64,000 bases of DNA from Chloroflexota bacterium (GCA_964291655.2 OZ219802.1:1696001-1760000); one strand, 5' to 3'; shown: positions 11,063 through 60,460, counted from the first letter of the stretch. Notes: a model not told the origin generated them from the letters alone. Made by a program: numbers and translations.

Positions 11063-12349
11063 TGTATAGACCAGAGAGATACTTAACGGGTGTGCGCAGA
11101 CATACTTTACACAGTATGGCACTCTTTCTGAGTAAAGAAGGAGGTGCCTCATGCCTTGGAAGGAGAGTACTGCTGTGGATGCTAAGCGCGAATTCGTCGC
11201 TTTGGCGCGAGCGCCGGGGGCGAACATACGCGCGTTGTGTCGACGCTTTGCGATCTCGCCGCCCACTGGCTATGCCTTGCTGCATCGTTACGCCGAAGAG
11301 GGGGAAGAGGCCTTCACGTCCCGCTCGCGTCGGCCGCACCACTCGCCGCGGCGCACGCCATCTGCGGTGGAGGCGGTCGTGGTAGAACTGCGCAAGCGCC
11401 ACCCGGCGTGGGGCGGTCGCAAGCTCCACCACGCACTGCTGAACGCCGGTCACACGGTGGTTCCCAGCCCCAGCGCCATCACCAACATCCTCCATCGGCA
11501 CGATCTCATCGACCCGGTGGAGCGAACGCACCGGGACTGGCAGCGCTTTGAACACCCGTATCCCAACGACCTGTGGCAGATGGACTACAAGGGTCACTTC
11601 GCCGTGGACGCCGGGCGCTGCCACCCGCTCACCGTCTTGGACGACCACTCCCGCTTCGCCGTGGGTCTGTGGGCCTGTGGGGACGAGCGGGCAGACACGG
11701 TGCGGGCATGTCTGACGAGTGCCTTTCGCCGCTACGGACTGCCGGCGCGTATGCTGATGGACAACGGGTCGCCGTGGGGCAGCAATGCCGCGCACCCGTA
11801 CACCAGGCTTACCGTCTGGCTGCTGCGGCTGGGCGTGTCGGTGAGCCATGGTCGCCCCTACCATCCGCAGACCCAGGGCAAAGAGGAGCGGTTCCACCGC
11901 ACCTTGCAGGCTGAGGCGCTGCAAGGCAGGCGGTTCGCCGACCTCGCGACCTGCCAAGCGGCCCTGGACCGCTGGCGGGACGTCTACAACCTGGAACGAC
12001 CGCACCAGGCCCTCCACATGGCAACGCCCCTGAGCCGCTACGCGCCGAGCCGCCGCTCCTTCCCCGAGGAACTCCCCCCGATCACGTATGGCGACGGCGA
12101 CGAGACGCGCAAGGTGATGGCGGAAGGTTGGGTCAACTTTCAGGGACGAGAGTTCCGCGTCGGCAAGGCGTTTGTGGGTTGCCACATCGGCCTGAGACCA
12201 ACCACCAGTGACGGCGTGTGGAGTGTGTGGTTCATGACCCACCACATAGCAGAGCTGAACCTGCGCGGACCTCTGCCCCGTGTAGAAATACCAACTCATG
12301 TGTAAAGTATGTCCTCGTACACCTGTAAACTATGTGTCAGGTCTATACA
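11063..12349 (+). mobile_element. IS481-family element, copy 1 (1287 bp)
   Basis: Ends TGTATAGACC...GGTCTATACA; 5-bp target duplication CCCTC (11058-11062 / 12350-12354). Confidence 0.95.
11151..12305 (+). CDS. IS481-family DDE transposase
   Basis: MPWKE start, HTH, WQMDYKG / MDNG / GKEERF catalytic triad, YNLERPHQAL. Confidence 0.95.
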   Translation: MPWKESTAVDAKREFVALARAPGANIRALCRRFAISPPTGYALLHRYAEEGEEAFTSRSRRPHHSPRRTPSAVEAVVVELRKRHPAWGGRKLHHALLNAGHTVVPSPSAITNILHRHDLIDPVERTHRDWQRFEHPYPNDLWQMDYKGHFAVDAGRCHPLTVLDDHSRFAVGLWACGDERADTVRACLTSAFRRYGLPARMLMDNGSPWGSNAAHPYTRLTVWLLRLGVSVSHGRPYHPQTQGKEERFHRTLQAEALQGRRFADLATCQAALDRWRDVYNLERPHQALHMATPLSRYAPSRRSFPEELPPITYGDGDETRKVMAEGWVNFQGREFRVGKAFVGCHIGLRPTTSDGVWSVWFMTHHIAELNLRGPLPRVEIPTHV

Positions 12350-12361
12350 CCCTCTCCCCAA

Positions 12362-14005
12362 GAGGGTGTCTCAAAAATAGATCTACTGGATATATACTGG
12401 TGTGAAGAGAAGCAAGGTGAGGTGGTGGGATAGTTTGTAGAGAGGTAGTGACGATGCCGTTGAGACCGTTTAGTCGTGAACAGGCCTGGCTGTTGCCGCC
12501 GACGCTGGACGAACTGATCCCGGACGACCATCCTGTCAGGTTTGCGGCAGCGTTCGTGGACAGCCTCGATGCTGCGGCCTGGGAGGCGATGGAGATTGAC
12601 CTGCAAGGCGATCCGCGTGGCGCCGGGGCCTACCATCCGCGCGCGCTGCTGGGCGTATGGGTCTACGGCTTCATGACCGGCGTGCGCTCGAGCCGCAAGC
12701 TGGAGGCAGCCTGCCGGGATCAGGTACCGTACCTGTGGCTGGTGGGGATGCAGCAGCCGGACCACAACACGCTGTGGCGCTTCTACAAGGCGCACCGCGA
12801 CCGGATGCGGACGCTGCTCAAGCGCACGGTGCGCACGGCGGTGCGAGCCGGCCTGGTGGAGTTGGCAATCCAGGCGGTGGACGGCACCAGGATCGCGGCC
12901 AACGCCGGGACGCGGCATACCCACGACGCGCAGGGGCTGCAGCGGCTGTTGTCCCGCACCGAGCAAGCGATCGCGGACCTGGAGGCGCAGAACGCCACGG
13001 GGGGCGACGCGCCGCCAGCGACTTTGCCGCAGGAACTTGCCGATGCCCAGGCCCTGCGGCGGCGGGTGGACGACGCGCTCGCCCGCGTCGCGGCTGAGGA
13101 CGGGCCGCGCTACACGAACCTGACTGATGCGGACGCGGCCCTGCTCAAGACTGGCATGGGTGGCTTCATCACCGGCTACAACGCCCAGGCGCTGGTCTCC
13201 CCTCTTGCGTCCCCGGACGAGGGCGCAGGGGGGAGGTTGATCACAGCCGTGGACGTGAGCGCCAGTGCCGACGACCATCCCCACCTGGCGCCGCTGATCG
13301 AGGCGGCGCAGGAGAACATCGACGCCGCGCGGGACGTGGTGACCGTTGCGGACGCCGGCTACCATTCGGGGGCCAACCTCGCCACGTGCCACGCCGGCGG
13401 CCACACGGTATTGATGCCCACGACCCACGAGCGCAGACGCCGCAACCCCTACCATAAAGACCACTTCACCTACCGTCCAGAGACCGACACCTACCTGTGT
13501 CCCCAGCAAAAGGTGCTCACCTACACGCACCGCTTGACCCACAGCAACGGCTACCGGGTCAAGCGGTACCAAGCCAACGGCCGGGACTGCAGAACCTGTC
13601 CGGCCTTCGGCGTCTGCACCTCCTCCCAGAGGGGCCGCTCCATAAAGATCAGCGCCTACGAGCCAATACTGCAACGGCACAGGCAGTTGATGGCCACCGC
13701 GCCTGCCAAGCAGGTGTACCGCCGCCGGAGTACCATCGTCGAGCCGGTCTTTGGCCTGCTCAAGGAGTGGCACAGTGCCAGGCGCTTCCTGCTCAGAGGC
13801 CGCAGCCACGTGACGTCCGAATGGCACCTGCTGGCCACCGCGTTCAATCTCAAGAGCCTCCACGCCCTGTGGCGGTCTGGGTGTAGTCCAGCGTCGCCCC
13901 GGGGACGAGTCTCTCACTGGCACCGTCTTGTTCATACCACCCGCCATCTGTCTGTCCTTCTCACCCCATTCACCGTGCCCCGCACCAAAATATTGAGACA
14001 GCCTC
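12362..14005 (+). mobile_element. IS1182-family element
   Basis: IRL GAGGGTGTCTCAAAAAT, IRR (rc) GAGGCTGTCTCAATATT; 4-bp target duplication CCAA (12358-12361 / 14006-14009). Confidence 0.9.
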
Positions 14006-14076
14006 CCAAGGAGAGGGGGCAGTTCTTGCGCCTCCGGCCGGGGTTACGCAAAGTTCTCCGGGGAAGATCCACATGA
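12448..14076 (+). CDS. IS1182-family transposase (ORF runs past the right IR)
   Basis: QAWLLPP, SSRKLE, AVDGT, GYNAQ, ADAGY, CxxCP, RRxxIVEPVFG motifs. Confidence 0.92.
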   Translation: MTMPLRPFSREQAWLLPPTLDELIPDDHPVRFAAAFVDSLDAAAWEAMEIDLQGDPRGAGAYHPRALLGVWVYGFMTGVRSSRKLEAACRDQVPYLWLVGMQQPDHNTLWRFYKAHRDRMRTLLKRTVRTAVRAGLVELAIQAVDGTRIAANAGTRHTHDAQGLQRLLSRTEQAIADLEAQNATGGDAPPATLPQELADAQALRRRVDDALARVAAEDGPRYTNLTDADAALLKTGMGGFITGYNAQALVSPLASPDEGAGGRLITAVDVSASADDHPHLAPLIEAAQENIDAARDVVTVADAGYHSGANLATCHAGGHTVLMPTTHERRRRNPYHKDHFTYRPETDTYLCPQQKVLTYTHRLTHSNGYRVKRYQANGRDCRTCPAFGVCTSSQRGRSIKISAYEPILQRHRQLMATAPAKQVYRRRSTIVEPVFGLLKEWHSARRFLLRGRSHVTSEWHLLATAFNLKSLHALWRSGCSPASPRGRVSHWHRLVHTTRHLSVLLTPFTVPRTKILRQPPKERGQFLRLRPGLRKVLRGRST

Positions 14077-14165
14077 ACCCCGCGTGAGCGAGCGGCAATT
14101 CCACCTCTCCCTAGGAAGACCAACGTAATACCCGCCGGCAAGGGGGATTACTCCCTCTCCCCAGG

Positions 14166-14400
14166 GAGACCTTTGCATAACCCCACTTTCAAGCAGGGGC
14201 ACTCCCTCTCCTGGGATGTATAGACCGGGTTGAGGGGGTCTTTTTGCTACGATGGCCCTTTACGCTGGGCGTGTCAAGACATATCAGGGCAGATTCGGTG
14301 TGCATATGGAGAGATTTCAGGAGATCCACCCTCACCCTAGCCCTCTCCCGTCGAGGGAGAGGGGACATCTGCGCTGTGGCGAGGGTTATGTAAAGGTCTC
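14166..14400. mobile_element. GAGACC-ended MITE-like shell (copy B) with a 17-bp IS481-MITE scar at 14217-14233
   Basis: Near-identical to 2268-2501; internal TGTATAGACCGGGTTGA. Confidence 0.8.
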
Positions 14401-14701
14401 CCCGGGGGAGAGGGTCGGGGTGAGGGGGAAGCAGTGCCGGCCAAGTTCAACATCAGTTGTCTCGCACAGTTTCACAAGACCTTTTAAGGGGTGTCTTCGT
14501 TTATTTCAGTAGCGCGAGACGTGCTCCCGGCATCTGCGTACGGCCGGTTGCAGGCGCTGCATTGACGCAGGAGCCAAGCATGCACGCAAGCGCTTGCACT
14601 GCCAAGGAGATTCTCCACGTAAGTAGGCATGGAACGGCGCGTTAGACGATAATAGAGAAGCTCTGCATTCAGATACTGCTAACGAGAAAGGTGAGAGACT
14701 G

Positions 14702-15685
14702 GTGGCAAAGGTATTCATCGGCGCACGTTCCATCCTTGATCTTCCCGGGCCGCACTGGGACACGCTGCGCAATGCCGGCGTGGAGCTAGCTCCACCGCTC
14801 GACGTGTTTCGCCCGCTTACCGAACAGGAGCTCATCGACAACCTTGACGGCGTCGTGGCTTTCGTTGCCGGCTCGGACCACTTTACCGAGCGCGTCTTTG
14901 CCGCCCATCCGCAGCTCAAGATCGTGGCCCGCGTCGGCGTAGGCTACGACCAGATCGACGTGGACGCCGCCACCAGACATGGTGTCTGGATCACCATCAC
15001 CCCCGGAGCCAACAACGATACAGTTGCCGACTATGCCTTTGCTATGATCTTGGCGGTGGCGCGGCAGCTTGTGGAGCATGCGGCTATTGCCCGTGACGGC
15101 GGGTTTCACCGCGTACAGGGCGTGGACGTGTGCAATAAGACCCTGGGCATTCTGGGTCTCGGCCGCATCGGCAAGTCGGTGGCCCGGCGCGCCAGCGGCT
15201 TTAACATGCGAGTGCTGGCGTACGACGTAATGTGGGATGAAGCCACGGCGGCGGAACTCGGCGTGGAGTTTGCGGAACCCGAAGCGCTCTTTGCGGAAGC
15301 GGACTTCATCTCGGTCCACCTGCCGAGCACGCCGGACACCGTCAAATTCATCAACGCCGACCGGCTGGCGCGCATGAAACCCAGCGCCTACATTGTTAAT
15401 ACCGCCCGCGGCAGCCTGGTGGACGAGGAAGCGCTGGTGGCCGCCATTGACGCGGGTCAACTGGCCGGCGCCGCCTCAGACGTCTTCTCCGTCGAACCTC
15501 CACCCGCAGACCACCCCTTCTTAACCCACCCCAAAATCCTGCCCTTCCCCCACGTGGCCGGCGTCACCCAAGAATCCGTCCACGCCATGGTGGTCATGGC
15601 CTTCGAGTGCCTCATTGACGTCATCCAAGGCAGACGCCCGCCGTATCCGGTAGACGAACAGGCGGAGTACGAAACTCTACCCTAG
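14702..15685 (+). CDS. D-isomer-specific 2-hydroxyacid dehydrogenase (SerA-like)
   Basis: RVGVGYD, GLGRIG, NTARG, DVF..EP, PHVAG. Confidence 0.9.
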   Translation: MAKVFIGARSILDLPGPHWDTLRNAGVELAPPLDVFRPLTEQELIDNLDGVVAFVAGSDHFTERVFAAHPQLKIVARVGVGYDQIDVDAATRHGVWITITPGANNDTVADYAFAMILAVARQLVEHAAIARDGGFHRVQGVDVCNKTLGILGLGRIGKSVARRASGFNMRVLAYDVMWDEATAAELGVEFAEPEALFAEADFISVHLPSTPDTVKFINADRLARMKPSAYIVNTARGSLVDEEALVAAIDAGQLAGAASDVFSVEPPPADHPFLTHPKILPFPHVAGVTQESVHAMVVMAFECLIDVIQGRRPPYPVDEQAEYETLP

Positions 15686-15838
15686 GTACCACTGACGTTT
15701 GTCTGAAAGGCAACGGCATAGACGCTCGACAGGCATCGAGTGTGGCACCGAAACGTCGAATAGCGGTGGCTCCGCAATTTGGCACCGATAGCGCTCACTT
15801 CGCGATCTGTCGTCGTGTGAATGGAGCGGTGGCCCGCT

Positions 15839-15895
15839 CCGTCATTCCGGCGCAAGCCGATTGTTCCGTCATTCCGGCGAAAGCCGGAATCCAGG
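15839..15895 (+). repeat. Two tandem CGTC-type REPs (first truncated) upstream of the GIY-YIG gene
   Basis: CCGTCATTCCGGCGCAAGCCG and CCGTCATTCCGGCGAAAGCCGGAATCCAGG. Confidence 0.85.
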
Positions 15896-15904
15896 GGATC
15901 GCTA

Positions 15905-16192
15905 ATGAAACCAGGCTATGTCTATCTCCTAGCAAGTAAGCGCAACGGCACCCTCTACGCGGGCGTAACTTCCGATCTCGTACAACGGGTGTGGCAGCAC
16001 AAGAGTGACCAGGTTGAAGGATTCACCAAGCGCTACGGTGTGCACACATTGGTTTGGTACGAAATGCATGAAACTATGGAGAGTGCGATTAGGCGGGAGA
16101 AGGCCATCAAAGAGTGGAAGCCGACCTGGAAACTCGAGCTGATTGAAAAGGAAAATCCCACATGGCGGGATCTGTACGAGGAAATTGTCTGA
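15905..16192 (+). CDS. Stand-alone GIY-YIG nuclease
   Basis: GYVYLLAS..NGTLYAGVT..L..R...H, AIRREKAIK, NPTWRDL. Confidence 0.9.
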   Translation: MKPGYVYLLASKRNGTLYAGVTSDLVQRVWQHKSDQVEGFTKRYGVHTLVWYEMHETMESAIRREKAIKEWKPTWKLELIEKENPTWRDLYEEIV

Positions 16193-16260
16193 AATGCGAC
16201 CTTGGAACAGATTCATACGTGGATGGGCGAATCCTGGAGGTCGAGTTCCCTCCCCCGGCT

Positions 16261-16376
16261 CCTGGACTCCGGCTTGCGCCGGAGTGACGGCGCGGGATGT
16301 CACGTTCGACGGTGGCAGACTCAATTTATGCACGCCGTACCATCCCCCTGGACTCCGGCTTTCGCCGGAGTGACGG
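16261..16376 (-). repeat. Two inverted CGTC-type REPs downstream of the GIY-YIG gene
   Basis: CCTGGACTCCGGCTT(G/T)CGCCGGAGTGACGG at 16261-16290 and 16347-16376. Confidence 0.85.
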
Positions 16377-16578
16377 AACAGGATATCCCTCTCCTAGCGG
16401 TGAAGTTGGTGGATTGAGTGGCCTACGTAGCACGGGAAGTTACCAACATTCTCGTTAGGTTCGACGGTCCGTTCGTGGTGTCTCTTGAGGGATTTCATTG
16501 ACTGTGGTTGACTACCTGTTCTCTCCACGGTCTGTCCGATGATGTACGAGGCTGTTCCGGTTGATTTGTGCGAATACC

Positions 16579-16899
16579 CTAACGGGGTGAGGTTGGTGGG
16601 CACCCGCACTTCGGGACGATAGACTCCTGCTCCCGGTTTCCCGCCAGTGTCATGCGATAGTCGGCCTCGAGCGCGTTCCAGAATTGGGGGCTGATGCCAA
16701 GCACTTCCCCCAGACCGATCGCAGTATCCGGCGTGATGGCCTTCTTGCCTTTGATGATTTCGTCTACCGCCTCTGCCGGTTTGCCGAGCCTTGCCGCAAG
16801 CTCTTTCTGGGTCATGCCGCGAGCATCAAGTTCCTCCTCTAGAACTTCGCCCGGCGGGATCGGCAGATCAGAGAAGACACGCGCAGAATCAGACTTCAT
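16579..16899 (-). CDS. higA: HigA/VapI-family antitoxin (orphan)
   Basis: PPGEVLEEEL, MTQKELA HTH, IIKGKKAITPDTA, FWNALEADY. Confidence 0.85.
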   Translation of the reverse strand: MKSDSARVFSDLPIPPGEVLEEELDARGMTQKELAARLGKPAEAVDEIIKGKKAITPDTAIGLGEVLGISPQFWNALEADYRMTLAGNREQESIVPKCGCPPTSPR

Positions 16900-16927
16900 A
16901 GTGGTTTCTCACGTACTCGATCATCAC
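16889..16927 (-). pseudogene. Possible 3' remnant of a higB toxin gene
   Basis: Reads VMIEYVRNHYEV* overlapping the higA start, resembling HigB C-termini; no room for a full toxin gene. Confidence 0.4.
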
Positions 16928-16944
16928 CTATTCTTCACAAAATC

Positions 16945-16980
16945 CAACAGGTCTGGGACGAAACCGTCCCAGACCTGTTG
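16945..16980 (-). terminator. Terminator hairpin
   Basis: 16-bp perfect stem CAACAGGTCTGGGACG/CGTCCCAGACCTGTTG. Confidence 0.75.
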
Positions 16981-17017
16981 TTTCTCAGACCAATTATAGT
17001 CTGTGAGCGATCCAGTC

Positions 17018-18403
17018 TTACTGTACGACGGAGTTGGCTTCCCACTCGTCCATCAGTTGCTGGGTCTTTTGCTCGGCCTCTTTGATGGCCTCGGGAATGG
17101 TCTTCAGGTGCTGCCAGGCATCCCGGCTGAGCTGGATGTGCGCGCCGAGAATGTCGGGGCCGCCGGCTGCGGTGACCACCCAGTGCGCGCCCGGCATCTC
17201 GTCGATGGCGTGTGCGCGGTCGGGGTCACCCTGGATGAACTCTTCGCTCCGGCCAACGGACTTGCGCACCGGAATGCGGTCCCAGCGATCGGCCCAGCGG
17301 CGGTCCTGCGGCTCCATGAAGAGGAACTCGAGGAACTTGAATGCGCCCTCAGCGGACTTCGCGCCGGTAGGAATGACGTTGGACCAGCCACCGCCGTAGG
17401 TCGCGGGCTCGCCGTCGTCCGGATACGGCTCAAATACTACGCTGTAGTTAATCTTGGCGTATTCCTCAGCGAACGCCGTATTCTTGGGCGTGCTGTAGGT
17501 ATCAAAGAACATGCCGACGCCACCGCCGGTAAACACGAGTGCTGGCGAGATATCGCCGCGGAAGGCCTGCACGGCGTCCCAGCCGCCCTGCGCGTCGTAG
17601 AAGCGGGTGCTGTGCTCCAGCGCCGCAACCATCTCCGCATTGTCCATGGTGGCCTTGCTCTCGTCAGCGCTGGTGAGATCCATGCCTTGCTGCCAATAGG
17701 GAATCATCCAACCGGCAATGATACCGGCGCTGCCCCAGTTTGGCACAAAGCCCAGGCGGGTAATGTTCTCACCTTCTAGCGTGTGGATCCTGCTCGACGC
17801 GTTGTGAAAGTCCTCCCAGTTCCCGATCGGTTCTTCCGGATCGAGGCCGACCTCAATCAGAATGTCGTGGTTCAGGAAGAGCGTGCGGGTGTCCGGGCCC
17901 CACGGCCAACCAAAGTGGCGGCCTTTATACGTCACGTCATTGAGGATTCGCTCCCAAATGTCGTCCGGCTGCATCACGCTGGAGGCCTTCACGAACGGCG
18001 TGATGTCCATAGTCGCGCCTACTGCGGCGTGCGACTTCGTGATGTAGCGGTCGAGGAACGAGATATCAGGGGCGCTGCCCGCCGCGACCACGGTGGGAAG
18101 CTTGCTCTTGGTATCGCCGTACGCGGTACCGACGGCAAATACCTCGACCTCATCCTGTGACGCGTTGAACTCAGCGACCATCTCGGCGCCAATGTCCTCA
18201 TGGAAAGGCTGCGTCGTGTGGGACCAATAGAGCACCTTCTGCTTGTCCATCATGGTGTCTTTGGCTTCCATCTCTTCGGACTCTGCCGGCGTGTCGCCAG
18301 CCGGAGCCATGCCTGCGCCTGCGCCGCAGGCGGCCGCAATTGCGGCAGTGATCCCGACGCCCATGCCGCCGAGGATGGTTCGTCTCGAAAAACGAGATTT
18401 CAT
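17018..18403 (-). CDS. Carbohydrate ABC-type solute-binding lipoprotein (Tat signal)
   Basis: SRRTILG twin-Arg, AAAC lipobox, SBP family 1 motifs (APDI, YGGGW, AFKFLEFL); no permease adjacent. Confidence 0.85.
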   Translation of the reverse strand: MKSRFSRRTILGGMGVGITAAIAAACGAGAGMAPAGDTPAESEEMEAKDTMMDKQKVLYWSHTTQPFHEDIGAEMVAEFNASQDEVEVFAVGTAYGDTKSKLPTVVAAGSAPDISFLDRYITKSHAAVGATMDITPFVKASSVMQPDDIWERILNDVTYKGRHFGWPWGPDTRTLFLNHDILIEVGLDPEEPIGNWEDFHNASSRIHTLEGENITRLGFVPNWGSAGIIAGWMIPYWQQGMDLTSADESKATMDNAEMVAALEHSTRFYDAQGGWDAVQAFRGDISPALVFTGGGVGMFFDTYSTPKNTAFAEEYAKINYSVVFEPYPDDGEPATYGGGWSNVIPTGAKSAEGAFKFLEFLFMEPQDRRWADRWDRIPVRKSVGRSEEFIQGDPDRAHAIDEMPGAHWVVTAAGGPDILGAHIQLSRDAWQHLKTIPEAIKEAEQKTQQLMDEWEANSVVQ

Positions 18404-18687
18404 TCTTGCTGTCTCCTTACCAATACCTATACACTTCGTGCAACGTACTCAAATGCGCATTGAGCGCAGTGTGGCTTGGGTAGGCCCGAATCCCCGTGTT
18501 TCGCACCTCCTCTATGTGCGGCAGGTGTACAACACTCTTTGAAATGCAGTCGCCGCAACACGGTCAGGCTTCCATGCTACCAATAAAATTAGGCTAGTGT
18601 GCTGGCTTTGTCAACAGTAATCGTGAGCGAGAGACCACTTTCGTTTGAAGAGCGGCTGAACTCCCACGGGCAAACGGTAGACTGTCC

Positions 18688-25749: not shown

Positions 25750-25925
25750 TCCCCCTCACCCCGGCCCTCTCCCCCAGGAGACCTTTGCACAACTCCGTCA
25801 TTCCGGCGAAAGCCGGAATCCAGAAGGTTGAGGGTAGCTTGCGATCACTCGCTATGAAGCCAAATTTCGCCCTGCACCACCCGGACTTCCCCATCACGGG
25901 GAATGGCTTTTCCAGAAGTCTCCAA
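25750..25925. repeat. REP cluster: CCCCTCACC-type REP with a GAGACC-ended shell in its loop carrying a CGTC REP
   Basis: CCCCTCACCCCGGCCCTCTCCCCCAG|GAGACCTTTGCACAACTCCGTCATTCCGGCGAAAGCCGGAATCCAG. Confidence 0.75.
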
Positions 25926-32576: not shown

Positions 32577-32666
32577 CACCGGCAACTCACACGCACTTTG
32601 CCTGCAGGGCGCAAAAGACATGCGCAGCCTGTGGGAAGAGCGTAGCCAGAGTTAATCCGTCATTCC

Positions 32667-32934
32667 TGTAAATGTCAGGTGATTCGTTGACAGATTTGAG
32701 AACAAAAGCAACTGAACGCAGTACTCTACATGAACAGTAAAGATGTCATTCCGAAAGGAGCGCAGCGAAGAGTCGCTCGGAGCGCGGAATCTAAGATGTT
32801 GAGCCTATTGGGCGACACGTTGCATAGGCCCTAGATTCCGCGAACAAGGTTCGACGCTCCGCTCGGAATGACATGATCTGTCAACACTGCCAGTTTGGGA
32901 GAGAATTCTGTCAACGAATTACTCAACACTTACA
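32667..32934. mobile_element. TGT..ACA MITE (family 2, copy 1) inserted in a CGTC REP
   Basis: IRs TGTAAATGTCAGGTGATTCGTTGACAGA / TCTGTCAACGAATTACTCAACACTTACA; duplication ATTCC (32662-32666 / 32935-32939). Confidence 0.85.
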
Positions 32935-33238
32935 ATTCCGGCGAAAGCCGCAATCCAGCGCCCGGCACAGCGAGCACATCCTGAATTCCTGCCTTCGCGG
33001 GGAGGCCGGTCCGGTAGCGTAGGTTTGCAACCTGCGCGCGTGTGAATTCCTACCCTGTATCGTGCACGCGGCGTACGTTGCGCTATCCAGGCCAGCAGGT
33101 ACAATACCGCGCATCCCTCCAAGAGACTCACTCTCCCTGAGTAGAGGGGAATTCTTCGCCGCACCAGTCTTACCCCACGTGTTCATCCGACTTACGCTAA
33201 GATCTACCTAAACGTTGTCACTCTCGCGGAGGTAGGGT

Positions 33239-39288: not shown

Positions 39289-39361
39289 CGTCATTCCCGC
39301 GCACGCGGGAATCCATCATCTCTGCGCACACGCTGGATTCCGGCTTTCGCCGGAATGACGG
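39289..39361. repeat. Inverted pair of CGTC REPs (REPIN-like)
   Basis: CGTCATTCCCGCGCACGCGGGAATCCA ... TGGATTCCGGCTTTCGCCGGAATGACG. Confidence 0.8.
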
Positions 39362-39447
39362 AGGTTTGGCAGTCTATTTTCATGGTGATGACGGAACTGG
39401 ATACCCGCGACGTGACTAACGTGCGATAAGCAACGAGCACTCTTGCC

Positions 39448-46535: not shown

Positions 46536-46648
46536 TGCAGGTGCGCACTCCGCTTGCGCGGGGCATTGGCAGTTTACGCTGCGGCCCTCGTGCCGCGTTA
46601 GATCGTGTCCGTCAAAGTGGTTAGTCTTGAGCCCGAGCTTTTCCCTGG

Positions 46649-46880
46649 GAGACCCTTGCGAAACTTGAGCGGTAGCGCGAGCGCTTCCTCTCCCTCGACG
46701 GAAGAGGGCTTGGGTGATGGTAAGTCTCCTTAAGTCTCTCGATACGCACACCGAATCTGCCCTGATATGTCCTGACACTGCCCAGTGTAAAGGGCCATTG
46801 CAGCAAAAGGCCCCCTCACCCCGTCCCTCTCCCCCAGGAGAGAGGTTTTCTCGCCTGCAGATGAGTTTCGCAGAGGTCTC
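46649..46880. mobile_element. GAGACC-ended MITE-like shell (copy C, inverted)
   Basis: Reverse-complement homologue of 2268-2501. Confidence 0.75.
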
Positions 46881-49419: not shown

Positions 49420-49442
49420 TTTGCAACAATCTATGGAGTTTT

Positions 49443-51287: not shown

Positions 51288-51364
51288 CTCTTTTGGCCGA
51301 CTCCGCGCACTGAAATCGCTTTAGGTAAAGGTCGAACCTCTTTGGTTGAAACGGCAAGTTCATT

Positions 51365-52255: not shown

Positions 52256-52367
52256 CGTCAGCTATCTTCTCCAGCCTCATTGCCCGTCCTGATCCTCACC
52301 CTCTATCATATACTGTGGAGGCCAAATGGGCTTCCAGGGCGACTCAAGCAACCACACAGAGGTGACA

Positions 52368-53162: not shown

Positions 53163-53209
53163 GCTCGACGTCAATCCCGGGAACGCTGCACCCAACTTGC
53201 CTCTTGGCC

Positions 53210-53348
53210 CCGTTTATCATTCGTCCTGAGTATCGTCTATTGTTCGACCTGAATACCGTTTGCCGTTCGTGCTGAACATCGCTTACCGTTCCTGCTGAAT
53301 ACCGCTTACCGTTCGTGCTGAGCTTGTCGAAGCATGAACGGTAAACGG
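53210..53348. repeat. Five degenerate 23-bp tandem units ending in a full REP hairpin
   Basis: Units at 53210, 53233, 53256, 53279, 53302; the last continues into CTGAGCTTGTCGAAGCATGAACGG. Confidence 0.8.
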
Positions 53349-53389
53349 AGATTGCGCGCTCGAACGATCACCGGTGTCGGCCTGACCTC

Positions 53390-54685
53390 TCACGCCAGCC
53401 CCATGCGCTTGTACGACGCATCGATGTTGCGCACGTGGTGGCGCACGTCAAAGAGCGCGTCAATCTCGCCTTCATCCAGATGTTCGCGCACCCGCGAGTC
53501 GTCCTTGAGGAGGGTGCCGAAGTCCGCGCCCGTTTCCCACGCGGCGGTGGCGTGCTCCTGGACGATGGCGTAGGCATCCTGTCGCGTGAGCCCGCAATTG
53601 ACCAGGGCTAAGAGCACTGACTCGCTGTAGACGAGGCCGCGTGTTTGGTTGAGGTTGCGCAGCATTTTGTCGGGGTACACCTGCAAATCGGCCATGACGC
53701 GGGTAAACAGCGCGAGCATGTAGTCAAGGACAATGCACGAATCGGGGAGAATGACGCGTTCGGGCGCGGAGTTGGTGATGTCGCGTTCATGCCAGAGGGC
53801 CACGTTTTCCAGCGCCGTTTGCGCGTAGGACCGCATCAGGCGGGCCAGGCCCGAAACTCGCTCACATCTGGCGGGATTTCGTTTGTGGGGCATGGCGGAA
53901 GAACCCACTCGACCGCGCTCGAAGGGTTCTTCCACTTCCAAGACCTCGGTGCGTTGGAGATTGCGGACTTCGGTCGCGAATTTATCCAGCGAAGAGCCAA
54001 TTACGGCCAACGTAGTTACAAAATCGGCGTGGCGGTCACGCTGGATGATTTGCGTCGAGGTGGGCGCTACGTCAAGGCCCAAACCGGCACACACGCGGTC
54101 CTCGATGGCGGGCGGCACGTTGGCGTGAGTGCCCACCGCACCGGATATCTTGCCCACGGCTACCTGTGCTCGCGCCGCCTCCAAGCGTTGCCGGTTGCGG
54201 CGCATCTCGTCCACCCAGACGAGCAGCTTGTACCCAAACGTGATCGGTTCCGCCTGCACGCCGTGGGTGCGGCCGATCTGCGGTACATCCTTGTACGTGA
54301 CCGCCGCTGCCTCGAGCACGCCGCTGAGTTCATCGATGCCGTCCAGCAGCACGTCCGCAGCGTCCCGCAGCCGGATGCCGGTTGCCGTGTCCTCCACGTC
54401 GTAGGAGGTCAACCCAAGGTGGAGAAAGCGGCTTTCGTCTCCCAGTTGTTCCGCCACCGCCATGAGGAAGGCGTTGAGGTCGTGGTCGATCTCGCGCTCT
54501 ATCTCCGCGATGCGTTCCAGGGACGGGGTCCGCGCGTGGCGCAGCTTAGCCATGTCTTCTGCGGGGACCGTTCCGTGCTCAGTCCACGCATCGCACACGG
54601 CAAGTTCTACCTGCAGCCAACTGGCGAACTTGCGGTCCTCAGACCAAATCATGCCCATTTTGGGTCGCGTGTAGCGGGGAAGCAT
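53390..54685 (-). CDS. purB: Adenylosuccinate lyase
   Basis: HLGLTS, GRTHG, SGAVG, GSSAMPHKRNP, LWHERD. Confidence 0.97.
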   Translation of the reverse strand: MLPRYTRPKMGMIWSEDRKFASWLQVELAVCDAWTEHGTVPAEDMAKLRHARTPSLERIAEIEREIDHDLNAFLMAVAEQLGDESRFLHLGLTSYDVEDTATGIRLRDAADVLLDGIDELSGVLEAAAVTYKDVPQIGRTHGVQAEPITFGYKLLVWVDEMRRNRQRLEAARAQVAVGKISGAVGTHANVPPAIEDRVCAGLGLDVAPTSTQIIQRDRHADFVTTLAVIGSSLDKFATEVRNLQRTEVLEVEEPFERGRVGSSAMPHKRNPARCERVSGLARLMRSYAQTALENVALWHERDITNSAPERVILPDSCIVLDYMLALFTRVMADLQVYPDKMLRNLNQTRGLVYSESVLLALVNCGLTRQDAYAIVQEHATAAWETGADFGTLLKDDSRVREHLDEGEIDALFDVRHHVRNIDASYKRMGLA

Positions 54686-54956
54686 GGGGATTTCTCTCGA
54701 ATCTAAAAGCCGTCGCACGAGCGATTGGGAATTTGCAGTCCACTTGCCATTCTAGGAGAAGGGCCTGGCTCTGTCCAACAGTGGAAAACGGGAACCGGCC
54801 GTGCTGCGCAAACAACTGCCGGCGAGGTCAATCTTGAACAGTGAAACGAGAGGAACAGTGGTGACCCAGATAAACCAGGCAAGGGGCGATGGGCAGACAG
54901 TGCTGAGTCGGCGGCGCGGCGGGTTAGGAAGGCGAGATAGGAGGTCGGCGCGGTTG

Positions 54957-55250
54957 CACTTCGACAAGCTCAGTGTGAACGGATGGGAGAATTGAATGGA
55001 AGTTCCATTGCGAATCGACAAGTCCAGTGTGAATGGATTAGGAAGTTGTCGGCGGGTGGGACCGAAATTCGACTGGCTCAGTATGAACGGAACTTGGGGC
55101 TGGCGGTTGATAGACCGGCACTTCGACAGGTTCAGCGCGAACGGGAACTGGGGTTTGCGATGGATCGGACAGCACATCGACAAGCTCAGTGCGAACGGGT
55201 CTTAGAGCCGGTGCCCAACGAGACTGGACTCTGGAAAGCTCAGCACAATC
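54957..55250. repeat. Degenerate array with exact 54-bp period built on a TCGACAAGCTCAG core
   Basis: Core at 54961, 55015, 55069, 55123, 55177, 55231. Confidence 0.8.
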
Positions 55251-55267
55251 AGAGAAAACACGACGCG

Positions 55268-55546
55268 CTATAGACCGCCCGCCATGGCGGGGATCACTGA
55301 GATCTCGTCGCCGTCGGAGAGCGCGGTGTCTTTGCCCTGGAGCGTGCGTACTTCTTCTGAGTTTACGTAGACGTTGAGGTAGCCGGGGATATCACCGTTT
55401 TCGTCTGCGATCTGCGCGCCGATGCCGGGGAACTGGCGCTCCAGTTCCTGCAGAAGCTGCGCAACGTTTGCCGCTTCGAGCTCCACCCGGGACTGATTGC
55501 CGGTGAAACGACGATACGGTGTCGGAATGTAGACTTTTACTCCCAT
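55268..55546 (-). CDS. MoaD/ThiS/CysO-like sulfur carrier with masked C-terminus
   Basis: IPT..R, NVYVN, L.DGDEISVIPAMAGGL. Confidence 0.9.
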   Translation of the reverse strand: MGVKVYIPTPYRRFTGNQSRVELEAANVAQLLQELERQFPGIGAQIADENGDIPGYLNVYVNSEEVRTLQGKDTALSDGDEISVIPAMAGGL

Positions 55547-55975
55547 CGCGATGGGTCCTTAGCTTTATTTTCGTTAGCTTGCGTACCAACTCTTACTATA
55601 AGCTATCTCGATGCTGCGGCTCAACGTGGCAACTCGTATCGGGGCTATCTTGGCTATCCTGGGGAAGACGCCAAAGAAACGCCCGTACTTTGCCGGCGCA
55701 GCTTTGAGTGTCCGCACTGCTCTCATTGCGTCGTTTGCCGCTAGGCAAGCGGCCGGTAGCAACGGTAAGATGTAATCGGATGTGGGCGCGTGTGTTCTCG
55801 CTTCGAATAACTTGCAGTGTACACGTCAAGCAGGTCGGCCAGTTCCCAGCAGGTATGACTGCGCACATGCGGAATTGACCCGGCATACACGTACCGCGTG
55901 ACCTTGAGCGGCACGCGCCCAGGACTCCGACTACGCAAGAAACAATCTTCCACTACAAGACAGGAGACTCGAGCT

Positions 55976-56758
55976 ATGGCGGAAGGTAACGGGCGACCCG
56001 AACTCTTCGATGTCAACGTCTCACTTGGCCCATTGCCGCAGCGGCCGCCGGGGTCGCCCGTCGATGCCGCGAGCTTGCTGGAGCTGCTGGATGCGTATGA
56101 CATTTCACGGGCACTGGTGACGCATACCTATGCCAAGTGGCACGATCCCACAGACGGCAATGAACGTCTCTTACAGGCCATTGCCGGCGAGCCGCGACTT
56201 TCCCCGTGTTGGGTGGTAATGCCTGCTGCCACGCGTGAAGTGCCGCCGGAAACGGAGCAAGTCGATCAACTGCTGGCGGCAGGTGCGCGCGCCGCGCGAC
56301 TCTGTCCCAAGACCCATATCCTTGTGCTCGAACCGTGGGTGATCGAGCCGCTCGCGCAAGCCCTCGCCGACAAACGGGTGCCGGTTCTGCTCGACTTCGA
56401 CAACGCCCACTACAGCGAGCCGCGGCACTGGGACTTCATCGCGTGGCTGCTGGAGGCGTTTCCCGATTTGCCGGTGATTCTCTTGCGGCAGTCCCACGCC
56501 GACTTTCGCGTGCTCTTCCCGCTGCTCGAACGCTCACCGAACCTCTATGTGGAAACTTCCTATCTGGGCGGGCACAGCGCCCTCATTGAGCTGGCAGAAC
56601 GGTGGGGAGCCGAGCGCTTCATCTTTGGCACCGGCCTGCCGCTTTTCGAACCGGCCCTGCCCATCACCACGCTGTCTTACGGCGGATTGGAGCCCGCAGC
56701 GCGCGCGGAAATCGCGGGGGCAAGCCTGCAGCGTCTCCTCGACGGCTGCAAGGTGTAG
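55976..56758 (+). CDS. Amidohydrolase-superfamily protein
   Basis: FDVN..LG, GNE.L, FPDLPVIL, NLYVETS, FIFGTGLP; AGGAG RBS. Confidence 0.8.
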   Translation: MAEGNGRPELFDVNVSLGPLPQRPPGSPVDAASLLELLDAYDISRALVTHTYAKWHDPTDGNERLLQAIAGEPRLSPCWVVMPAATREVPPETEQVDQLLAAGARAARLCPKTHILVLEPWVIEPLAQALADKRVPVLLDFDNAHYSEPRHWDFIAWLLEAFPDLPVILLRQSHADFRVLFPLLERSPNLYVETSYLGGHSALIELAERWGAERFIFGTGLPLFEPALPITTLSYGGLEPAARAEIAGASLQRLLDGCKV

Positions 56759-56968
56759 GAACTGCATGCGTGGCCGCGACGCTATTTCATCGGCCGAGCT
56801 TTGCTTCCTCAAGGAGACGATTGCGAAATCTCTCTTGGGCGCAATTTCGATTCCTCTACCTCATGAGAACCGTCCGTAACCTTTGCCAATACGAGGAAGT
56901 CCCCTCTCCCAACAGAAACCATGGCGTATCTAGATCTTGAGGAAATTGTGCTACCCCCTCTCCCTGGG

Positions 56969-57519
56969 GAGACCTCTGCAAAACCCTTCTTTCAAGCAGG
57001 GGCACTCCCTCTCCTGGGGGAGTGTATAGACCGGGTTGATGGGTAACACATGTTCGGGTTGATAGGTTACACCATCGAATATGGGAGTTTTCGTTGTATG
57101 CAGTGTCCATGCCATGGAAGTTAGACCAACTCAATACCCTTATGGATACGGTTTTTCCCCTGGCACCAGCTCACGAACTGAACATGAGTATGTCGTGGTG
57201 CCTGGAACGTCTATTTCTCTGCCCAACCTAAAGCGCCCGAAGGTGTCAATCAGTACAATGTGTAACCTATCAACCCGAACACCTGTTACCTATCAGCCCA
57301 GTCTGTACAGGGAGAGGGTTGGGGTGAGGGGGTTTTCTTGCTACAATGGCCCTTTACGCTGTGCAGTGTCAAGACGTATCAGGGCAGAATCGGTGTGCAT
57401 ATGGAGAGATTTCAGGAGATTCACCCTCACCCCCGTATCACGTACGGGGCAGGCTCTAACCCTCTCCCGTCGAGGGAGAGGGATCACTCTCGCTTCCGCT
57501 TAGGTTTCGCAACGTTCTC
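56969..57519. mobile_element. GAGACC-ended shell (copy D) interrupted by an IS481-type MITE
   Basis: Homologous to 2268-2501; flanked by CTGGG direct repeat within a REP loop. Confidence 0.75.
57023..57309 (+). mobile_element. IS481-type non-autonomous element (287 bp)
   Basis: ~50-bp IRs TGTATAGACCGGGTTGATGGGTAAC.. / ..GTTACCTATCAGCCCAGTCTGTACA; duplication GGGAG; retains ATGCCATGGAAG (MPWK) at 57109. Confidence 0.85.
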
Positions 57520-57678
57520 CTGGGGGAGAGGGCCGGGGTGAGGGGAAACCTCGCCAATTCAACCGTCATCTCCCTCCCACGATCGTATAGGCAGCGGACT
57601 CCAGTACGTGTGGCGGGGCACGCGAGCCTCCGCCGCGCACATGAGAAAAATCTACTCAATCGATTAAGGAGCATCCAA

Positions 57679-58365
57679 GTGTCCACCTTCGCAAAACTCA
57701 CACCCGCGCAGCTTGCTGCCCTGCGGGCGATAGACAGTCCTACCATTGCCAACGCCATCGAAGAATTCGACGTGCGCGACCGCCGCGCCGGGTACATGGA
57801 TGGATCCATCCACTGTATATACCCAGATCTCGGCGAAATCGTGGGCTATGCCTTCACTGTCACCTTCAAGAACCGCGAACCGGGCGACCCGCCCATGCGC
57901 CAGGAGAGGGTCAGGGCGCTGGAACACGCGGCGGCTGTGCCGGCGCCGCGCATCTTGGTGGCCCACGACGCCACGCCGGAGGTGCCGGCGGCGCTCTTTG
58001 GCGAGATTATGTGCACGCTGCTCACGCGCCTCGACTTCGTGGGCGTCATCACCGACGGTACCGTGCGCGACCTCAATGAGGTGCGGGAGCTCGGCCTGCA
58101 GTATTTCGCGTCCGGCGCGATCGTCTCTCACGGGCAAGTCACGGTAGAATCTTTTGCCACGCCCGTGACCGTTGCGGGACTCTCCGTCGAGACTGGCGAC
58201 CTGCTGCATGCCGACTGCAACGGCGTCGTCCAGATTCCTGCCGAAATCGCGCCCGAGGTCGCCGCCAAAGCCGAGGAAGTGCGCCGGGACGAGGCAAAAC
58301 TCCTCGACGCTCTCGCCGATCCGGCGTTTACGCTAGAGGAATTTAAGAAGGTCATGTTGGGGTAA
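57679..58365 (+). CDS. RraA/HMG-CHA aldolase family protein
   Basis: SPTIANAIE, GYAFT, GEIM, TDGTVRD, GDLLHAD.NGVV; AAGGAG RBS, GTG start. Confidence 0.88.
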   Translation: MSTFAKLTPAQLAALRAIDSPTIANAIEEFDVRDRRAGYMDGSIHCIYPDLGEIVGYAFTVTFKNREPGDPPMRQERVRALEHAAAVPAPRILVAHDATPEVPAALFGEIMCTLLTRLDFVGVITDGTVRDLNEVRELGLQYFASGAIVSHGQVTVESFATPVTVAGLSVETGDLLHADCNGVVQIPAEIAPEVAAKAEEVRRDEAKLLDALADPAFTLEEFKKVMLG

Positions 58366-58369
58366 GCAC

Positions 58370-59026
58370 ATGGCTCATGCAGAGCAGAACAAAACTCGTG
58401 AAGAAATGCAGGACATTGCCGATCAGTTGCGGGCGATTGGGCAAACCGGGCTCTTCTATGCCCGGCGGGAGGATGACGAGTACGACATTGCCCGTTACGA
58501 GCGCGCGTTGGCGCTGGCGGCGCGGCTCTTTGCGCTCACGGATACGCGATCGGTAGAAAAGATCTTGGCGTTGTACAACAGTGACATCAACTATCAAACG
58601 CCAAAAATAGCGGCGTTCGGCGCTATCTTCGACCCGCAGGGCCGCGTGCTGCTCATACAACGGTCCGATAATCGCCTCTGGGCCATGCCGGGCGGCATGG
58701 TTGAGGTCGGCGAGACCGCGGCACAGGCGGCGGAACGGGAAATCTGGGAGGAGACCGGCGTGCGCGTGCGGGCTGAGCAGCTCATCGGTATTTACGACAA
58801 CCGGGCTCACGGCGGTCGGGCGCCGTTTCAGACTTATATGGTTGGGTTCCTGTGCGCGCATGTTTCCGGTACGCCGCACCCGACGAGCGAAGCCCTGGAC
58901 GTAGGCTACTTTACCGAAGATGCGCTACCGTCGCTCACGCCCGGCGCCCGCGACCGCGTGCCTCAGGCCTTCGCCTGGCAGCGCGGCGAACGCACGGAGC
59001 CGCACTTCGAGCGCGAGCTTGCGTGA
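58370..59026 (+). CDS. Nudix hydrolase with N-terminal extension domain
   Basis: GG.VEVGETAAQAAEREIWEETG Nudix box; YQTPK. Confidence 0.9.
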   Translation: MAHAEQNKTREEMQDIADQLRAIGQTGLFYARREDDEYDIARYERALALAARLFALTDTRSVEKILALYNSDINYQTPKIAAFGAIFDPQGRVLLIQRSDNRLWAMPGGMVEVGETAAQAAEREIWEETGVRVRAEQLIGIYDNRAHGGRAPFQTYMVGFLCAHVSGTPHPTSEALDVGYFTEDALPSLTPGARDRVPQAFAWQRGERTEPHFERELA

Positions 59027-59173
59027 ATTCCTGTCCCGCGAAAGCAATCACACGGATCGCGCCATTGCATCGGGAAGCCAAGCACGTCGCGCGGGGGCTT
59101 GTCCCCCGCTTGGAGAGCTTTGCCTAGCCCTCATCGTACGCGCGGGAATTACCCCCTCTCCCTGGGGAGAGGG

Positions 59174-60460
59174 TGTATAGACCAGAGAGATACTTAACGG
59201 GTGTGCGCAGACATACTTTACACAGTATGGCACTCTTTCTGAGTAAAGAAGGAGGTGCCTCATGCCTTGGAAGGAGAGTACTGCTGTGGATGCTAAGCGC
59301 GAATTCGTCGCTTTGGCGCGAGCGCCGGGGGCGAACATACGCGCGTTGTGTCGACGCTTTGCGATCTCGCCGCCCACTGGCTATGCCTTGCTGCATCGTT
59401 ACGCCGAAGAGGGGGAAGAGGCCTTCACGTCCCGCTCGCGTCGGCCGCACCACTCGCCGCGGCGCACGCCATCTGCGGTGGAGGCGGTCGTGGTAGAACT
59501 GCGCAAGCGCCACCCGGCGTGGGGCGGTCGCAAGCTCCACCACGCACTGCTGAACGCCGGTCACACGGTGGTTCCCAGCCCCAGCGCCATCACCAACATC
59601 CTCCATCGGCACGATCTCATCGACCCGGTGGAGCGAACGCACCGGGACTGGCAGCGCTTTGAACACCCGTATCCCAACGACCTGTGGCAGATGGACTACA
59701 AGGGTCACTTCGCCGTGGACGCCGGGCGCTGCCACCCGCTCACCGTCTTGGACGACCACTCCCGCTTCGCCGTGGGTCTGTGGGCCTGTGGGGACGAGCG
59801 GGCAGACACGGTGCGGGCATGTCTGACGAGTGCCTTTCGCCGCTACGGACTGCCGGCGCGTATGCTGATGGACAACGGGTCGCCGTGGGGCAGCAATGCC
59901 GCGCACCCGTACACCAGGCTTACCGTCTGGCTGCTGCGGCTGGGCGTGTCGGTGAGCCATGGTCGCCCCTACCATCCGCAGACCCAGGGCAAAGAGGAGC
60001 GGTTCCACCGCACCTTGCAGGCTGAGGCGCTGCAAGGCAGGCGGTTCGCCGACCTCGCGACCTGCCAAGCGGCCCTGGACCGCTGGCGGGACGTCTACAA
60101 CCTGGAACGACCGCACCAGGCCCTCCACATGGCAACGCCCCTGAGCCGCTACGCGCCGAGCCGCCGCTCCTTCCCCGAGGAACTCCCCCCGATCACGTAT
60201 GGCGACGGCGACGAGACGCGCAAGGTGATGGCGGAAGGTTGGGTCAACTTTCAGGGACGAGAGTTCCGCGTCGGCAAGGCGTTTGTGGGTTGCCACATCG
60301 GCCTGAGACCAACCACCAGTGACGGCGTGTGGAGTGTGTGGTTCATGACCCACCACATAGCAGAGCTGAACCTGCGCGGACCTCTGCCCCGTGTAGAAAT
60401 ACCAACTCATGTGTAAAGTATGTCCTCGTACACCTGTAAACTATGTGTCAGGTCTATACA
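59174..60460 (+). mobile_element. IS481-family element, copy 2 (1287 bp)
   Basis: Same ends and same protein as copy 1; 5-bp duplication GAGGG (59169-59173 / 60461-60465). Confidence 0.95.
59262..60416 (+). CDS. IS481-family DDE transposase
   Basis: Identical translation to 11151..12305. Confidence 0.95.
   Translation: MPWKESTAVDAKREFVALARAPGANIRALCRRFAISPPTGYALLHRYAEEGEEAFTSRSRRPHHSPRRTPSAVEAVVVELRKRHPAWGGRKLHHALLNAGHTVVPSPSAITNILHRHDLIDPVERTHRDWQRFEHPYPNDLWQMDYKGHFAVDAGRCHPLTVLDDHSRFAVGLWACGDERADTVRACLTSAFRRYGLPARMLMDNGSPWGSNAAHPYTRLTVWLLRLGVSVSHGRPYHPQTQGKEERFHRTLQAEALQGRRFADLATCQAALDRWRDVYNLERPHQALHMATPLSRYAPSRRSFPEELPPITYGDGDETRKVMAEGWVNFQGREFRVGKAFVGCHIGLRPTTSDGVWSVWFMTHHIAELNLRGPLPRVEIPTHV

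Follow-up and report, generated by a model that had tools for sequence, protein, structure and literature searches.

IS481-family insertion sequences and related MITEs occupy fixed positions in a tailed REP hairpin of a Chloroflexota genome

We analyzed a 64,000-bp stretch of a Chloroflexota genome (GCA_964291655.2, OZ219802.1:1696001-1760000; G000:C2:1696001-1760000 in our numbering, within a 3.47-Mb assembly of two contigs), hereafter called the window. The window contains two copies of an insertion sequence (IS) of the IS481 family, which we term ISA, as well as a MITE, a miniature transposable element with inverted repeats. A preliminary description of this DNA had proposed that both insert site-specifically into one arm of a repetitive extragenic palindrome (REP). 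In the following, ISB and ISC denote sister ISs, and ISX denotes a nested IS of the IS1182 family. The REP copies of the window lie between open reading frames (ORFs) and are clustered with other repeats. The two ISA insertions comprise the following features (TSD, target site duplication; positions within the window).

11045-11062, plus strand: REP tail CCCCTCACCCC (11045-11055), linker GG and left TSD CCCTC (11058-11062) of ISA copy 1, read from the sequence; offset +3 from the tail.
11063-12349, plus strand: ISA copy 1, IS481 family, 1287 bp, terminal inverted repeats TGTATAGACC...GGTCTATACA; one of four identical genome copies.
11151-12305, plus strand: transposase gene of ISA copy 1, a single ORF of 384 aa (NCBIfam IS481 equivalog, Pfam).
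12350-12361, plus strand: right TSD CCCTC, rest of the tail-side arm TCC and loop CCAA, the latter being the left TSD of the nested IS1182-family element (from the sequence).
59154-59173, plus strand: REP hairpin left of ISA copy 2, CCCTCTCC, CTGG, GGAGAGGG, its final five bases being the TSD GAGGG (from the sequence and the orthologous uninterrupted site in G008).
59174-60460, plus strand: ISA copy 2, identical to copy 1 by sequence comparison, with the transposase ORF at 59262-60416.
60461-60478, plus strand: right TSD GAGGG, linker TC and tail GGGGTGAGGGG of the ISA copy 2 site (from the sequence).

The two ISA copies are 100% identical across 1287 bp, and their inverted repeats (IRs) of 51 nt are 82% complementary. 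Copy 1 is flanked by CCCTC at 11058-11062 and 12350-12354, and copy 2 by GAGGG at 59169-59173 and 60461-60465. Since both are the five bases that follow CCCCTCACCCC and a 2-nt linker, read on opposite strands, the two copies entered the repeat at one and the same point and face opposite ways relative to it, in line with the proposal. Removal of the IS together with one TSD was said to restore the repeat in both cases. This is true for copy 2, while at copy 1 the REP is also interrupted by the nested IS1182-family element. The orthologue of the copy 2 site in the sister genome G008 is empty: the same unique flanks (approximately 90-94% identity) are adjacent there, with an intact REP between them. 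It reads ...CCCTCTCC-CGGG-GGAGAGGG-TC-GGGGTGAGGGG... and is colinear with the window minus ISA and one GAGGG. In a population check for an empty site at copy 2, based on short-read contigs, which break at repeats, none of the matches listed bridges 59173 to 60466; the listed joints have short sides of at most 26 nt that lie in other repeats. G008 also carries a 99% identical ISA (L002) that duplicates GAGGG, and a 92% identical relative in G015 sits at a deeper position with an imperfect duplication. The orthologous locus itself (L052, G008:C61:121600-121840) consists of 56-nt units, about four in tandem, that each terminate in a hairpin without tail; only the last unit has a tail, and this is the REP that was hit by ISA in G000.

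ISA is an IS481-family IS. Its transposase scores 293.3 bits against the NCBIfam IS481 model NF033577 (cut-off 224) and 117 against the IS3 model, below the cut-off of 160. Pfam domains are rve (138-239) and rve_3 (228-293), with HTH_32 and HTH_28 in the N-terminal part; LZ_Tnp_IS481 reaches 20.8, slightly under its cut-off of 22.2. At the level of these family matches, the single 384-aa ORF combines an rve-type DDE core with an N-terminal helix-turn-helix, and there is no programmed frameshift as in IS3 elements. The curated model, the single ORF, the IRs and the short TSD all fit the assignment. The enzyme had been described as a TnsB-related DDE transposase; it is a DDE transposase of the IS481 family (NF033577, rve), and its kinship with TnsB holds only at the level of the superfamily of rve domains and retroviral integrases. 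ISA shares with IS481, ISRe46 and ISLxc2 the transposase family, the single ORF, IRs starting with TGT and a short TSD. Classical IS481 members are reported to target the palindrome NCTAGN with a 6-bp TSD (PMC6794481, PMC2516522), whereas the target found here is a hairpin repeat of about 33 bp without CTAG. Likewise, CTAG is absent from all TSDs (CCCTC, CTCCC, TCCCC, inside the REP). The NCTAGN target is a trait of some IS481 members and does not define the family.

The MITE and a short remnant occupy further copies of the same repeat.

57007-57022, plus strand: far arm CCCTCTCC, loop and left TSD GGGAG of the MITE (from the sequence).
57023-57309, plus strand: MITE1, 287 bp, ends matching ISB; 11 genome copies (from the sequence and genome BLAST).
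57310-57332, plus strand: right TSD GGGAG, followed by the remaining AGGG of the tail-side arm, the TT linker and tail GGGGTGAGGGGG (from the sequence).
14217-14233, plus strand: 17-nt remnant of the MITE1/ISB left end inside a REP, the scar of an internal deletion (from an alignment of three paralogues).
2300-2338, minus strand: uninterrupted paralogous REP, the empty-site reference for MITE and scar; 8-bp stem, 4-nt loop, -9 kcal/mol as DNA (from alignment and folding).

MITE1 has inverted ends of 50 nt and is flanked by GGGAG at 57018-57022 and 57310-57314, in agreement with the reported duplication 4 bp deeper in the same arm than the ISA site. Its ends match those of ISB, an IS that is absent from the window, over 49/51 nt (96%) and 53/53 nt (100%). 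Judged by these ends, the MITE is a derivative of ISB and not of ISA. All 11 genome copies lie inside the hairpin, and in 10/11 the TSD is 5-6 bp long. MITE1 would be mobilized in trans by an ISB-type IS. The 17-nt scar is identical to the MITE/ISB left end, as reported. It is real, because a three-way alignment of paralogues of approximately 250 bp shows the intact REP (2251-2502), the whole MITE (56952-57520) and the remnant (14149-14401) side by side. The same composite unit of approximately 250 bp occurs a fourth time, inverted, at 46638-46815; it resembles the mosaics known as bacterial interspersed mosaic elements, contains three or four REPs of differing types and shows 68-93% identity between copies.

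A BLAST search of the 3.47-Mb genome revealed 72 full-length IS481-type elements. These comprise ISA with four copies (100% identical), ISB with seven (1265 bp; five copies at least 99.7% identical and two ISB/ISC hybrids), ISC with 17 (1265 bp), MITE1 with 11, seven of which are 100% identical, and MITE2 with 33 (288 bp, ends close to ISC). The ISB and ISC transposases share 53-55% identity with that of ISA. All 72 elements are flanked by REP halves. To count REPs, we excised the IS481-type elements and ISX computationally and searched for a strict form consisting of tail CCCCTCACCCC, a linker of 2-4 nt, arm CCCTCTCC, a loop of 2-7 nt and arm GGAGAGGG, with at most one substitution each in tail and arms. 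For measuring insertion sites from the tail, a fuzzy tail motif was given up for a stricter anchor, because its matches included the arm CCCTCTCCC and the resulting offsets made no sense. The strict REP is present in 229 copies of a 33-bp unit (7,490 bp, 0.22% of the genome), and the hairpin alone in 309. The strict REP holds 66/72 elements and the hairpin alone 68/72, compared to an expectation of 0.16 insertions genome-wide (log10 P -167). Thus, the single motif seen for the window events is the target far beyond chance throughout the genome, and the outcome that would have spoken against the proposal, namely most copies lying elsewhere, was not found. At least one element, ISX included, is present in 85/229 strict REPs. 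Four more truncated ends adjoin REP halves in the expected register, at C2:921134, C2:1397818, the window scar and C2:1965576, the last being an 80-bp right end of ISA. The genome contains one weak match to Y1_Tnp, the type of transposase associated with REPs (RAYT; 30.2 bits), and no copy of the REP studied here lies within about 1.2 kb of it. Outside the window, two MITE2 copies form an inverted pair (G000 C2:1511277-1511564 and C2:1520257-1520544), one flanked by tail-side REP halves and the other by far-arm halves, as after an inversion of about 9 kb between them; one of the two reconstructed REPs lacks a clean match.

The insertion point is fixed for each group of elements. ISA sits at +3 from the tail in 4/4 copies, with CCCTC at the base of the stem and a TSD of 5 bp in three copies and 6 bp in one. 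ISB, ISC and the MITEs are mostly found at +7 or +8 with the TSDs CTCCC/TCCCC, which is 4-5 bp further in. Within tailed hairpins, 55 of these insertions are on the tail side and five at the mirror position, +3.5. The tail-side events cluster with respect to the dyad, with 27 at -3.5, 10 at -3.0, eight at -2.5, six at -2.0 and four at other positions. Of all 72 elements, 46 have a TSD of 5 bp and 16 one of 6 bp, and in 10 only 0-3 bases match. Element orientation relative to the REP is random (34:36, P 0.90), and no replichore or strand bias of the occupied REPs was seen. It could be argued that insertion is random, and that purifying selection or recombination left copies only in harmless REPs. 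REPs are indeed probably intergenic and neutral, and unmatched flanks in 10/72 IS481-type and 10/23 IS1182-type elements are signs of later recombination. However, selection cannot yield registers precise to a single nucleotide, offsets that differ by lineage or the 55:5 choice of arm, nor would it spare tail-less and truncated REPs, which should be equally intergenic. In addition, the four ISA and 7/11 MITE1 copies are too recent for much filtering, because they are 100% identical, and even a genome of which 12% is permissive predicts 1.33 REP insertions (log10 P -106) against 66 observed. An origin from random insertion is therefore vanishingly unlikely, and the positional data effectively refute it.

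The genome also contains natural variants of the target. The complete target is a composite of about 33 bp, made of the 11-nt tail CCCCTCACCCC, a linker of 2-3 nt and a complete palindrome with an 8-bp stem (CCCTCTCC, loop, GGAGAGGG). IS481-type elements occupy 66/226 tailed hairpins and 2/83 tail-less ones (Fisher P 2e-8). For the 297 sites that have both a tail and a near arm, occupancy is 70/225 when at least seven of the eight stem pairs can form, 0/17 with six pairs and 1/55 with five or fewer (P 5e-7); about 30% of complete REPs are occupied. The low-pairing class is mainly a subfamily ending in ...GGAGACCTTTGC. From the tail through linker, near arm and loop up to the fifth base of the far arm, this subfamily equals the full REP. 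Since tail-less and truncated-arm variants are almost never hit, both the tail and the outer far arm matter, the latter even though it lies at least 12 nt from the duplicated bases. Three independent events have used a hairpin with a different stem, CCCCGTA-loop-TACGGGG, that abuts the same tail. These are MITE2 at G000 C2:1507574, L040 in G005 and L044 in G015, all with the same TSD ATACG/CGTAT. This second small hairpin family, an occasional alternative target of MITE2 and ISB-like elements, is present in the window at 57431-57449 and 10876-10895 and often lies beside the tail GGGTGAGGGTG; compared with the paralogous units, one window copy is an insertion of 24 bp.

These variants bear on the question whether sequence or structure is recognized. 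The requirement for the distant far arm and the three events next to an unrelated stem would be expected if the transposase recognized an extruded cruciform or a single-stranded hairpin rather than bases, the REP being simply the commonest stable hairpin. The REP does fold well as DNA (8-bp stem, 4-nt loop, -9 kcal/mol, z = -3.3), and relatives of these elements in other phyla use palindromes of differing sequence (see below). Yet complete hairpins without tail are almost never hit, and recognition of structure alone does not account for the preference for one arm over the other. The lack of replichore or strand bias is contrary to a model of hairpins on the lagging strand, and C-rich and G-rich arms are common to all targeted palindromes. 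Moreover, a stem of 8 bp is short for cruciform extrusion. We consider recognition by structure alone unlikely.

The REP that holds ISA copy 1 contains a second IS.

12362-14005, plus strand: ISX, IS1182-family IS, 1644 bp, IRs GAGGGTGTCTC...GAGACAGCCTC, located at the dyad of the REP that ISA copy 1 also occupies (from BLAST and the transposase model).
14006-14017, plus strand: CCAA, the second copy of the loop, and GGAGAGGG, the true far arm of this REP (from the sequence).

The ISX transposase ORF (12448-14076) extends beyond the end of the IS at 14005 and scores 364.8 bits against the NCBIfam IS1182 model NF033551 (cut-off 270), with the Pfam domains DDE_Tnp_1_6, DUF772 and DDE_Tnp_1. The GAGGG to the right of ISA copy 1 is formed by the first five bases of the ISX terminal repeat and not by the far arm of the REP. 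An interpretation of the sequence to the right of ISA copy 1 (CCCTCTCC-CCAA-GAGGGTGTCTC...) as a degenerate REP was rejected, as ISX occupies 12362-14005. Either ISA or ISX may have been the first to insert into this REP. BLAST detects 25 copies of ISX in the genome; two are cut at contig ends and 23 have both ends. All 23 lie within the REP hairpin, and 20/20 in singly tailed hairpins are centered on the dyad. The TSD is the 4-nt loop and is perfect in 13/23 copies. In the remaining 10 the two flanks do not match, and in some of them the loop copies are inverted, suggesting later recombination, including IS-mediated inversions. Occupancy by ISX does not depend on the tail (20/226 tailed and 3/83 tail-less hairpins, P 0.15).

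Two unrelated DDE families, the IS481 clade and the IS1182-family ISX, thus use the same REP, as would be expected if a REP-binding host protein or a state of the REP, such as a gyrase or nucleoid-protein site, recruited transposases that are themselves little specific. However, each lineage keeps its own fixed register on this REP, at 0 nt from the dyad for ISX, about -3.5 nt for ISB, ISC and the MITEs, and about -7.5 nt for ISA. Hairpin targeting also accompanies the IS481 clade into other phyla. IS1272 and TnSha1 of the IS1182 family have been described to insert into hairpins and terminator-like palindromes in staphylococci (PMC4923244), so that ISX is in line with its family and the behavior of each family looks element-encoded. 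The IS1182 family is distinct from the IS481 clade under study, and there is also a difference within it: as far as that report describes it, IS1272 has no TSD and deletes part of the hairpin, whereas ISX duplicates the loop. Taken together, recruitment by a host factor is very unlikely to be the basis of the specificity.

REP targeting is conserved across the genus. The IS481 clade is present in 12/16 other genomes of the genus (E <= 1e-30). We fetched 48 loci, 47 of which have recognizable ends. In 38/47 both flanks carry the REP arm motif at a distance of no more than 22 nt, in four one flank does and in five neither, and the tail is found within 40 nt in 43/47. At one locus (L003, G015:C1:1201818-1205969), an ISA-like element is interrupted, some 70 nt in from its left end, by an ISB-like element, one of the few non-REP insertions of the clade.

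A wider scan of species-representative genomes covered 80 loci with relatives of 54-92% identity, of which 14 were dropped because they lacked a recognizable pair of ends or lay at a contig edge, leaving 66 with both ends. A generic inverted-repeat finder often locked onto subterminal repeats and was replaced by a search for end motifs. According to record titles, the hosts are other Dehalococcoidia and Chloroflexota, Acidobacteriota, Alpha- and Deltaproteobacteria, and others. A stem with at least eight matches spans the insertion point in 38/66 loci (58%), compared to 7% of 1,188 control positions at the same loci (Mann-Whitney P 5e-17). Outside the genus and two metagenome-assembled genomes that gave 40 copies, the proportion is 20/24. 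Three Acidobacteriota loci (L124, L137, L140) show the same tailed REP with the same offset. Other relatives are centered on the dyad: at L139 a 15-bp stem has the TSD CACTG as its loop, and at L092 and L095 the TSD likewise forms the loop. The targeted palindromes are G/C-rich. Because these relatives in other phyla sit in palindromes, palindrome targeting appears to be a trait of this IS481 subgroup, with a register that varies by lineage.

From these data we consider it very probable that the IS481 clade (ISA, ISB, ISC) and its MITEs transpose site-specifically into one REP. Since each lineage has its own register on one REP, and since the trait follows the clade into other phyla, the specificity is probably encoded by the transposase, which would recognize its target directly. 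An element-encoded transposase complex may capture the REP as duplex DNA. It would recognize the sequence of the tail and would read the two palindrome arms either as a pair of half-sites or through DNA shape. Joining is staggered by 5-6 bp, in a register fixed per lineage: ISA joins at the base of the tail-side arm (TSD CCCTC), while for ISB, ISC and the MITEs the joint is on the tail side, about 3.5 nt from the dyad (TSD CTCCC/TCCCC). The absence of orientation and replichore bias argues for a duplex target and for a complex that is symmetric for the two element ends, which would make orientation random. Because REPs are short and presumably intergenic repeats, the insertions are probably near-neutral. 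A population of about 97 elements could in this way have come to fill about 37% of the REPs, and the REP may thereby serve as a safe harbor.

Several observations weigh against site-specific transposition as described here. Six of the 72 elements lie outside the strict REP, in degenerate or recombined REPs or in another hairpin by the same tail, and 10/72 lack a clean TSD. Among the relatives, 5/47 loci have no REP arm at the junction; they include L003, inside another IS, and two or three (L034, L035, L039) whose surroundings are unrelated or at most REP-like. Neither the copies of one genome nor the loci of related genomes are fully independent of each other. Tail-less and truncated-arm REPs are separate repeat subfamilies, and their low occupancy may have other causes. 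If ISX came first, ISA copy 1 needed no intact 8-bp hairpin, although the ISX end supplies GAGGG beside it and preserves a 5-bp stem. Because the unrelated ISX uses the same REP, transposases in general may be attracted there by a host factor or a DNA structure. Finally, all support is drawn from fixed insertions.

The element ends give a weak hint at how the tail might be read. Between nucleotides 9-21 in the left end of ISB/MITE1 (CCGGGTTGATGGG) and the REP sequence CCGGGGTGAGGGG, 11/13 positions agree (shuffle p approximately 0.0005, before correction), and MITE2 and ISC match at 10/13 and 9/13, at the same position 9. This register places the tip of the IS where the tail-side arm begins, 1-2 nt away from the observed joint. 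Linker and tail of the REP might therefore mimic a transposase binding site in the left end, such that a protomer bound to the tail directs insertion next to it. Against this, about 60 comparisons were made, which renders the corrected significance marginal; the four matching elements are related and not independent, ISA has no such match despite its dependence on the same REP, and REP and IS sequences are both G-rich. Mimicry of the IRs on its own is quite unlikely to explain the specificity. A broader version, in which the tail mimics the subterminal binding site of the element and is bound by a transposase surface, the palindrome is sensed as shape and a lineage-specific distance sets the register (dyad, -3.5 or -7.5 nt), is speculative and would have to be called unlikely as well. 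If it were true, this would be a natural DDE system in which simple, swappable protein-DNA contacts set both the insertion site and the exact register, conserved together with its REP across at least Chloroflexota and Acidobacteriota.

IS1397 inserts into the loop of its REP, and its specificity is determined by the transposase. IS1397, ISKpn1 and ISPsy8 belong to IS3, the sister family of IS481, and in the descriptions at hand they resemble the present elements in their rve-type DDE transposase, insertion into REP hairpins, short TSD and REP association of every copy. They differ from them in that the transposase studied here is a single ORF without an OrfA/OrfB frameshift, the TSD is 5-6 bp, insertion is off the dyad toward a required flanking tail, and two MITE families share the target. 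All 5/5 ISPsy8 copies, for instance, are reported at one point on the symmetry axis of the hairpin with a 3-bp TSD (PMC1525189). IS621, ISPpu9, ISPpu10 and ISPa11 of the IS110 family are described as having every copy at a fixed REP point as well (PMC1525189, PMC12288879, PMC8450116). IS110 elements use DEDD recombinases and typically lack terminal IRs (PMC1525189), in contrast to the 50-nt IRs, TSDs and random orientation found here. In their text on REP-specific ISs, Tobes and Pareja (2006; PMC1525189) list the families IS3, IS110, IS4, IS256 and IS5, with 100% association for the class called type 1, and IS481 is not mentioned in that text. The 66-68/72 elements in REPs and the orthologous and paralogous uninterrupted sites correspond to such a type 1 association. 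The preliminary description named REP targeting for IS1397, IS621 and some Pseudomonas ISs but not for IS481, and this agrees with our search of the open literature, which found no account of an IS481-family element that targets REPs or hairpins; an earlier description may exist in ISfinder, TnPedia or subscription journals. Of the papers naming IS481 together with REPs, those examined do so in unrelated contexts, PMC10433421 solely among its references. Our data extend REP targeting, known from other IS families, to IS481.

REP targeting is one of the few near-absolute site specificities among ordinary DDE ISs, and its basis is poorly understood. The elements described here offer a large natural data set, with 72 IS481-type insertions in this genome, to which sister species add 47 and more distant genomes 66. 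It holds target "mutants" (no tail, truncated arm, different stem) and three lineages with three registers on one hairpin, and such natural variants make the question of sequence versus structure directly testable. REP targeting would also explain how a small genome tolerates about 97 IS and MITE copies (approximately 2.5% of its DNA), and why many of them mark rearrangement breakpoints.

The window contains further repeats. A third palindromic family (GTCATTCCGGCGAAAGCCGGAATCC / GGATTCCCGCGTTCGCGGGAATGAC), unrelated to the REP studied here, is present at 10733-10763, 15836-15895, 16261-16387, 25795-25824, 39332-39372 and 60575-60600. A dispersed repeat of approximately 255 bp lies at about 60616-60872 and, inverted, at 32659-32947; it has dozens of copies in this and the sister genomes (74-89% identity) and is possibly another MITE-like family. 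At 4710-5096 we found a tandem array of a 26-bp unit with at least 11 registers that are up to 96% identical.

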